Shown: in pieces, positions 41,568 to 42,908 of the stretch
Numbering within the stretch: the stretch's first letter is position 1
Layout of the letters: the number at the start of each line of letters is the position of its first letter
Sequence record: PZ000613.1
DNA length: 64,000 nt
DNA from: a phage
Reading direction: 5' to 3' (one strand)
The notes under the pieces: generated by a model
Database searches by the model: none
What the model was told of the DNA's origin: nothing
What the model saw: only the letters and a program-made list of their open reading frames with translations
Made by a program: the position numbers and the translations under genes

Positions 41568-42908
41568 ATGATTGTTATCCCGATTAACCAAATTGAAGAT
41601 AAGGTTGCTCAACAACCTGATATCACTGTTGGTCGTCACTTCATTGAACAGTTGATTAACAACAACTTGATTCCAGACGGTATCTGTCCCATCATTACTG
41701 GTGGGGCTATTCGTGATGCTGTCCTTAACAACACAGCTCCACATGACATTGATATCTTTATTGTCAGAGGACAAACACCAAGAACTCAAAATACTTTCGT
41801 ACCAACTGAGCAGTGGCAAATGCTTGGGAGAGAGATTGAAAGTAATGTGAAGGAATGGCTAGAGTCACAAGATATCGAATATGCATCCCTTCTTGCTGAA
41901 GCTACAAACGAATCCTATGCTGGGAGTTCTCAATTAACATTCACTGATATTATTGAGTTTCAGTGGGATGGGGCTCGTATCCAATTCATGTTTAATTATC
42001 CTACTTCTATTGAAGAGGTATTGGATAATTTTCCTATGATGTGTCGTGGTGCGATGACTCTTGACAACTTATTCATGACTTCTCACGGATATTTGGCTAT
42101 GACCGCCCCTTGTCCAGTGGTTGTTTCTAGTCGTGAAATCAGATATGTTCACAAGAAGTGGCCTAACTCTCAAGTGTTGAGATTTTCCTCTCCAGCAGCT
42201 GCACATCAATACATGGCCCAAACTCGATATCTTCCCACACCTCAACCAGTTAATCATCTGGTCAACGAACGAGGTCAGGTTGCTCTTATTGAGGATACAA
42301 CAAGTGCTCAGTATTGTGTTAATCGTGACATGAGTCGATTCTTTGGAATCCCTTATGAAGAGATTCAGTTAATGTCAAGCACACATGGCTCTAGCCAGAT
42401 TCATGCGTATTGGTCTGAAGGGTTGACAAATTTAACGACTAACACGGGTGGTGATCTGCTTGGTCGAGAAGACGAACCTAACCGACACAATGCAATTGAA
42501 GGGGTGTTTGTAGCCCCTACAATGCGTCGAGCACAAGAGTCACGAAGAGAAAGCCCTACTCGTAGAACATCTTTTGAAGAAGCTCTTGGTATCACAAGTG
42601 ATTCTATGGAGAGATGGATGTCTAGTCCTTCTCGTGGTCGTCCAAATGGCTTCAACGTTAGTCGTCACCAGTTCTCTGGTCAGGGTTTTGCTGTTGGTGA
42701 TATCAACACCCCTTCTCGTGTTATCTGGACTGATGAAGCTTCTGCTCAAGATGCGGTAGGTAGTCTTGATGTTCTTTCTCATGAGGAACTTGCTGAGACC
42801 GTCAGTCGCAATCTTGCTGATCGATTTGTTGCCAATAGCCCTGAAGTGTTAGAGCCTCAGGTTGGTGGGGAATTAGACCAGTTGTTAAATTCACAAAACA
42901 TTCGTTAA
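41568..42908 (+). CDS. Pol-beta-type nucleotidyltransferase with CCA-adding/poly(A)-polymerase-like head motif; disordered Ser/Arg-rich C-terminus (446 aa)
   Basis: TGGAIRDAVLNNTAPHDIDIF matches the GGxVRD ... DxD head-domain signature; start set at the ATG after the upstream stop. Confidence 0.5.
   Translation: MIVIPINQIEDKVAQQPDITVGRHFIEQLINNNLIPDGICPIITGGAIRDAVLNNTAPHDIDIFIVRGQTPRTQNTFVPTEQWQMLGREIESNVKEWLESQDIEYASLLAEATNESYAGSSQLTFTDIIEFQWDGARIQFMFNYPTSIEEVLDNFPMMCRGAMTLDNLFMTSHGYLAMTAPCPVVVSSREIRYVHKKWPNSQVLRFSSPAAAHQYMAQTRYLPTPQPVNHLVNERGQVALIEDTTSAQYCVNRDMSRFFGIPYEEIQLMSSTHGSSQIHAYWSEGLTNLTTNTGGDLLGREDEPNRHNAIEGVFVAPTMRRAQESRRESPTRRTSFEEALGITSDSMERWMSSPSRGRPNGFNVSRHQFSGQGFAVGDINTPSRVIWTDEASAQDAVGSLDVLSHEELAETVSRNLADRFVANSPEVLEPQVGGELDQLLNSQNIR

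Follow-up and report, generated by a model that had tools for sequence, protein, structure and literature searches.

The open reading frame at 41568..42908 (+) of the 64-kb window, i.e., of the whole 64,000-nucleotide stretch of PZ000613.1 that was analyzed, encodes a Pol-beta nucleotidyltransferase which carries the catalytic signature of class II CCA-adding enzymes and poly(A) polymerases (PAP), but whose membership in the CCA enzymes fails beyond this signature (motif A). Among relatives with a tested function, the nearest by sequence is Gad2, an anti-Gabija protein, through a homology that is remote. Judging from its conserved residues, the protein is probably active in adding nucleotides, and it might serve counter-defense on some substrate as part of a Gad2-like clade derived from the CCA-type head; we favor this reading tentatively, at somewhat less than even confidence. 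The sighting of the gene is not new, because RefSeq annotates its ortholog, phiEco32 gp73, as 'nucleotidyltransferase'. New here are the explicit failure of the CCA-enzyme assignment, the link to Gad2, and the tiny size, accessory status and lineage-locked distribution of the family.

The source phage is a Kuravirus, i.e., a phiEco32-like E. coli podophage of the Gordonclarkvirinae, and the 2.5 kb round the nucleotidyltransferase gene is 90–94% identical to the best-matching records, which include phages Ptacy1479, Paul and SU10. The ORF is complete, running from ATG at 41568 to TAA at 42906–42908 (446 aa plus stop). An in-frame GTG at 41511 is unlikely to be a longer start, as all 37 aligned homologs start at the same Met, followed by I.IP. 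Kuravirus orthologs (phiEco32, Paul and SU10 among those listed) are 78–93% identical to the protein and have the identical gene order, gp73 being 83% identical, and PHROG 12715 matches full length (E 1.9e-244, residues 1–432). The upstream neighbor is the PolA-type 3'-5' exonuclease subunit of a split DNA polymerase (41012..41566, +), whose stop is separated from the nucleotidyltransferase start by 1 nt; the same abutting layout is seen in distant contigs. The invariable downstream neighbor is a dCTP deaminase (42921..43454, +). Genes are tightly packed in this region, and a scan of 38.5–44.5 kb for promoter and terminator signals gave none above chance.

The catalytic head (residues 1–145; 41568..42002, +) is of the Pol-beta, class II CCA/PAP type and consists of N-terminal helices, the GG-helix, the DxD strand, a long helix (residues 80–100) and a beta-hairpin (residues 125–143) bearing the invariant Q139. 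Motif A, TGGAIRDAVLNNTAPHDIDIF (residues 44–64; 41697..41759, +), includes the GG pair, R49, D50 and the metal-binding D60xD62; its residues 45–62 read GGAIRD-x9-DID and align to the GGAVRD..DxD of solved CCA enzymes. The pattern GG.[IVL]RD.{6,14}D.D has a single match across all six translated frames of the window, as against none in 200 shuffles. Across 37 sequences with identities down to 21%, G45, G46, R49, D60, D62, F64, I128, Q139, P156, Y193 and K197 are invariant, D50 is kept in at least 90% of the homologs, and motif A as GGxVRD...DxD is conserved in 36 of the 37. The signature from which a CCA-enzyme-like head had been read in the first-pass annotation is thus upheld. The alpha/beta fold, an hG[GS] at the N-terminus of a helix and a DxD/E pair on the next strand, by which the Pol-beta superfamily is recognized, are all present. 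In the AF2 model, the conserved two-metal active-site signature lies in a Pol-beta fold predicted with confidence. For the third catalytic carboxylate, no conserved candidate was found in the family: E130 varies between E, D, Q, N and S, and E104 also varies. Position 99 is nearly invariant (E; D in one sequence), but is located on a helix. A first AF2 model, made from a shallow alignment of close orthologs, was poor (pLDDT 49) and gave uninformative Foldseek results (SpoT, OAS1 and A-adding enzymes at E ~3e-3); it was replaced by the model based on 37 sequences.

Pfam, AF2 and structure comparison support a Pol-beta nucleotidyltransferase with a long disordered tail, and also that its head is closest to the class II CCA/PAP head, as had been proposed from the sequence. 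The closest solved structures are all tRNA CCA-, CC- or A-adding enzymes or PAP. When the family profile was compared with PDB sequences, CCA-adding enzymes ranked at the top (6ibp, E 0.0026), over 29 residues only, whereas a single-sequence phmmer search of PDB gave no match. A search with the Pfam PolyA_pol head profile (PF01743), which the first-pass annotation had suggested as a check, is borderline: with a gathering score of 23 bits, the protein scores 21.8 bits at full length, just below this cut-off, 22.6 bits as residues 1–296 and 23.5 bits as residues 1–212. The same profile matches 17 of 25 diverse family members at E<=0.1. Queries of NCBIfam and PADLOC with four family members gave no match.

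The second folded subdomain (residues 146–296; 42003..42455, +) has pLDDT values of 77–97 and invariant columns, and its family-specific conserved positions are P156 (in 'FPxxC'), P183, R189, Y193 and K197. It stands where CCA enzymes have motifs B–E, and the motifs found here instead are common to Gad2. Beyond motif A, class II CCA enzymes have motif B RRD, which recognizes the ribose through the NTP 2'-OH, motif D EDxxR, which is a protein template selecting CTP or ATP, and neck, body and tail domains holding the tRNA. In the phage family, RRD is found in only one of the 37 sequences, at an unrelated C-terminal position, and [ED]D..R likewise in one, also at an unrelated position. In a joint alignment, the equivalent of RRDFTINA is NFPMMCRG (xFPxxC) and that of EDPLR is the hydrophobic APCPV. 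RNA-binding neck, body and tail domains, including the PolyA_pol RNA-binding domain, were detected neither by Pfam nor by structure comparison.

Profile comparisons draw the same boundary. In hhalign, the family profile aligns with E. coli Cca over 23 columns, and similarity to this enzyme is confident only across ~23–30 residues of motif A. With a profile of 83 Cca/PcnB sequences, the probability is 63% (E 7.1e-5) over 193 columns, a forced long alignment in which confidence is confined to motif A; this profile is narrow, as the scan for Cca relatives gave only gammaproteobacterial sequences at >=68% identity. Overall, class II CCA enzymes and PAP I (E. coli Cca and PcnB, B. stearothermophilus CCA 1miv and T. 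maritima CCA 3h37) have motif A in common with the phage protein, but only ~150 residues superpose, the phage protein is without RRD, EDxxR and any of the RNA-binding domains (neck, body, tail), its folded part is ~290 aa as compared with ~370–470 aa, and profile similarity past motif A is not significant. Stand-alone CCA-head proteins (S. pneumoniae NP_344798.1, PDB 2la3; Fri1 ORF31) have no specific sequence relationship to the family. The latter protein, a Friunavirus 'tRNA nucleotidyltransferase' of 187 aa, was considered as a closer relative and rejected (hhalign 5%, in the motif A region only).

Gad2, for which a nucleotidyltransferase domain is predicted by AF2, is the second of the proteins with which SPbeta-like phages counter Gabija; Gad2 knockout makes SPbetaL7 Gabija-sensitive and a Brevibacillus homolog restores resistance, Gabija inhibition having been demonstrated only for these two proteins (bioRxiv 10.1101/2023.05.01.538930). 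The Pfam label precomputed on most Kuravirus orthologs of the nucleotidyltransferase is PF26128, which resolves as 'Gad2 (faint)'. In hhalign, the family matches a profile of 15 Gad2 homologs, taken from the supplementary tables of the Gad2 paper, with 91% probability (E 1.1e-6) over 121 columns (query 41–198), and a smaller profile of 8 sequences with 92% (E 6.3e-7) over 121 columns; the control with reversed Gad2 gives 2.9% (E 0.015) over 15 columns. The alignment spans motif A, the [ILV]Q.[MI] strand (Q139), F[P/D]xxxC and R..[RK]Y..K, and a MAFFT alignment of five family members, five Gad2 homologs and Cca shows shared motifs beyond motif A in the same columns as those paired by hhalign. 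The Gad2 HMM gives family members at most 20–27 bits (median 14–16) and the Cca HMM at most 12.9 bits (median 3.8), the cross-scores between the family and Gad2 (4–27 bits) falling under any family threshold. By profile comparison, the family is nearer to Gad2 than to Cca (hhalign probability 91% versus 63%).

Several motifs are common to the two phage-borne families: a head of ~200 aa, the GG-helix, DxD[YF]F, the [ILV]Q.[MI] strand and P...R..[RK]Y..K. In both, F[DP]xxxC replaces RRDFTIN, EDxxR is missing and the C-terminal extensions are variable. They differ in that Gad2 mostly has GGA[IV]TS where the phage family has GGAVRD, and FDFT where it has FPxx, and in that only the phage family has an insertion of ~30 residues (helix 80–100 plus a WLED motif). 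Also, Gad2 sits at the SPbeta anti-Gabija locus, whereas the phage family is encoded in a replication module. As the relation is remote, too distant for HMMER alone to find, the protein is not filed as a Gad2 family member. Gad2 itself matches the Cca/PcnB profile (hhalign 88.5%, E 2.7e-6, 166 columns), and Gad2 and the phage family look, from these profiles, like offshoots of the CCA-type head without the tRNA-specific apparatus. Placement in an unrelated nucleotidyltransferase clade, which had been named as the outcome that would speak against a CCA-type enzyme, is thus seen in part only: the family is closer to Gad2 than to CCA enzymes, but Gad2 itself appears to be derived from the CCA head. 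About 170 Gad2 homologs have been reported. Active-site mutations are said to abolish Gad2 function, a point on which nothing in this analysis relies. Canonical Gad2 homologs are found in 140 cultured phage records; among the 30 listed, none is from Gordonclarkvirinae, nearly all are hypothetical and none is annotated as Gad2 or anti-defense.

The family is tiny, phage-only, and confined to Gordonclarkvirinae and uncultured relatives. An exhaustive HMMER search of 1.84 billion representative proteins with an N-terminal 262-residue profile found 34 at E<=1e-3, with no canonical CCA enzyme, poly(A) polymerase or Gad2 among them. In 50,697 cultured phage records, queries with different family members all find the gene in one set of 98 Escherichia/Shigella Gordonclarkvirinae and in no other record, and with the divergent homolog P0045 as query, a word-indexed search of proteins gave two only. 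Wherever a family member is present, its slot is between the PolA exonuclease subunit and the dCTP deaminase. Uncultured phage contigs of 87–100 kb encoding short homologs keep the order of gamma-glutamyl cyclotransferase, primase-helicase, exonuclease, nucleotidyltransferase and dCTP deaminase. The related Aeromonas phage BUCT695 (L091) has the rest of the module with a 51-aa hypothetical ORF (4489–4644) in the exact slot of the nucleotidyltransferase; the gene is therefore an accessory insertion, and the exonuclease and deaminase do not need its product as a partner. The 51-aa ORF marks the exonuclease/dCTP deaminase junction as an insertion hotspot. In phage vB-EcoP-XT32 (OR757435.1, 58775–60051), the ortholog is split in two annotated ORFs and two tblastn pieces (P0043, 358 aa), reflecting either a frameshift or sequencing error, or else a natural knockout.

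Residues 297–446 (42456..42905, +) form a tail that is predicted from pLDDT and composition to be disordered; pLDDT is <35 from about residue 273 on in the full-length AF2 model, which was built from a shallow alignment of close orthologs. The C-terminal 150 residues had been described as low-complexity and rich in Ser, Arg, Gly and Glu. This composition applies to residues 297–376, which contain 46% of these residues, as compared with 21–25% in the folded part, and are near neutral, but residues 377–446 are acidic (net charge −9), and the tail is net acidic overall. The reduction in Shannon entropy is modest (3.90 versus 4.17 bits), and the tail is therefore better called disordered than strongly low-complexity. 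Many family members are only 274–320 aa and have no such tail, and the long tail is therefore a lineage-specific addition, conserved within Kuravirus. The folded residues 1–296 are under strong purifying selection (dN/dS 0.11–0.14 in two comparisons with phiEco32), whereas dN/dS of the tail, which is prone to indels, is 0.29–0.48 across all four pairs. Purifying selection is thus weaker in the tail than in residues 1–296.

In the counter-defense reading, the head would be derived from that of class II CCA enzymes and poly(A) polymerases and would have shed the ribose-sensing RRD, the base-templating EDxxR and the tRNA-binding domains. With the GG-helix and the two-metal site of D60xD62, the enzyme would take an NTP or dNTP as nucleotide donor and a hydroxyl of a macromolecule as acceptor, either at a nucleic-acid 3' end or on a host defense component. 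Counter-defense would be an accessory function, co-expressed with replication genes, and the disordered tail a lineage-specific add-on for docking or regulation. Several points weaken this reading. The link to Gad2 is remote, with no Gad2 found by HMMER and a Pfam match labeled 'faint', and part of its signal is generic because the CCA-type head is common to both families. The gene resides in a replication and nucleotide-metabolism module, not in a recognizable anti-defense islet, and the loss of motifs B and D might equally mean altered or weak catalysis. Also, as of February 2026, no mechanism was yet known for Gad2 (PMC12904381), so that the analogy supplies no substrate.

Other readings differ mainly in the acceptor. 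A poly(A) polymerase-like enzyme might add untemplated nucleotides to the 3' ends of host or phage RNAs, e.g., to mark host mRNA for decay and nucleotide recycling or to adjust phage transcript stability. This is unlikely, as the PolyA_pol RNA-binding domain, RRD and EDxxR are absent, the acidic tail is missing in many homologs, and E. coli already has PAP I. A DNA-directed role in the replication module is more doubtful still. It could consist either in producing, with the dCTP deaminase, DNA of covalently altered or otherwise non-canonical composition that blocks restriction, or in a terminal transferase activity for which 3' ends of the linear genome or of replication intermediates are acceptors. 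The strictly conserved order of exonuclease, nucleotidyltransferase and dCTP deaminase, with the 1-nt gap to the exonuclease, would suit such a role, and loss of RRD would, from what is known of class II enzymes, end discrimination against dNTPs. We know of no DNA-hypermodification pathway with a CCA-type nucleotidyltransferase, and dCTP deaminase with ThyX amounts to ordinary dTTP synthesis. Restriction-modification resistance of Gordonclarkvirinae is notable and comes without a known modification or inhibitor, and the BASEL authors point to the dCTP deaminase and the nucleotidyltransferase as its possible basis (PMC11990801). Nevertheless, BUCT695 keeps the exonuclease and the dCTP deaminase without the nucleotidyltransferase, so that the deaminase can do without it, and these genomes are routinely sequenced and assembled with no reported anomalies, a point of little weight.

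Less probable again is the first of the two roles put forward in the first-pass annotation, i.e., that of a tRNA nucleotidyltransferase restoring all or part of the CCA on tRNAs damaged by defense systems. Genuine CCA enzymes do occur in other phages (PMC7824862), and the textbook match of motif A, the kinds of enzyme among the closest solved structures and the phage's own tRNA gene are all in its favor. However, RRD and EDxxR are missing in 36 of the 37 family sequences, the RNA-binding domains are absent and similarity to Cca is limited to motif A. The host E. coli has its own Cca, and the CCA is templated in the tRNA genes of both host and phage. For these reasons, tRNA 3'-end repair is a poor fit. 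Finally, there is a slim chance that the protein is a pseudo-enzyme, i.e., a non-catalytic scaffold for binding either a nucleotide or another protein, in which the disordered tail is the functional part. The loss of the nucleotide-specifying motifs, the variation at the usual position of the third carboxylate (E130, E104) and the conservation of the tail in Kuravirus members are compatible with it, but GG, R49 and DxD are invariant family-wide, D50 almost invariant, and GG and DxD are retained in Gad2 as well, which is hard to explain without catalysis, and tailless homologs have the same synteny.

A more specific form of the counter-defense reading, to which we give as little weight as to a DNA-directed role, is that of a Gad2-type end-protecting enzyme built into the Gordonclarkvirinae replication operon. 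Translational coupling to the polymerase exonuclease subunit and tethering by the disordered tail would bring it to free DNA 3' ends, which it would cap or extend; or it would nucleotidylylate a host nuclease-helicase of the OLD/Gabija type. The linear, terminally redundant genome and replication intermediates would thereby evade end-sensing nucleases. If so, this would help to account for the breadth of resistance to DNA-targeting immunity in these phages, so far unexplained, and would be the first mechanistic model for Gad2.

Coliphages of the Gordonclarkvirinae are common candidates for therapy, and the unusual breadth of their resistance to restriction and other defenses has no known explanation (PMC11990801); the nucleotidyltransferase is present in every cultured member matched. 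Should it prove to be a functioning relative of Gad2, the Gad2 mechanism could be approached biochemically in an E. coli system, and the case would show how phages repurposed a catalytic module of tRNA maturation.

Other features of the window deserve mention. Its T7-like family A DNA polymerase is split: the 184-aa 3'-5' exonuclease subunit (41012–41566) directly follows the primase-helicase, and the polymerase domain (51641–53485, 614 aa) lies ~10 kb downstream and corresponds in position to phiEco32 gp53 ('lacks exonuclease domains'). The two parts are separated by ~20 nucleotide-metabolism and small genes, of which the nucleotidyltransferase gene is the first. This block includes genes for a Dps/ferritin-like 'DNA-binding protein' (44620–45231) and a phage thioredoxin (45645–45923), which may, by analogy with T7, be a processivity factor. 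It also includes tandem genes of 65–69 aa (43658–43855, 43855–44064 and 44064–44273, with another nearby at 45930–46157), apparent paralogs with ~23–31% identity and the pattern W..[RK][VI]...TR..AR..KK...IHK...KV.Y, which are hypothetical in relatives.

Just upstream of the replication genes (~29433–39008) is a cluster of genes for amide-bond and glutamine chemistry, whose phiEco32 counterparts are annotated as a COOH-NH2 ligase, an amidoligase, a GFAT-like glutamine amidotransferase, a RimK-like ATP-grasp protein and a gamma-glutamyl cyclotransferase, the last being kept even in distant relatives. A link between this cluster and the unexplained resistance of these phages to restriction is conceivable. 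A single tRNA-Arg(TCT) gene, at 24420–24495, ends in CCA, in agreement with the templated CCA reported for it earlier. Since the AGA codon is rare in E. coli, codon supplementation is the ordinary explanation of this gene.
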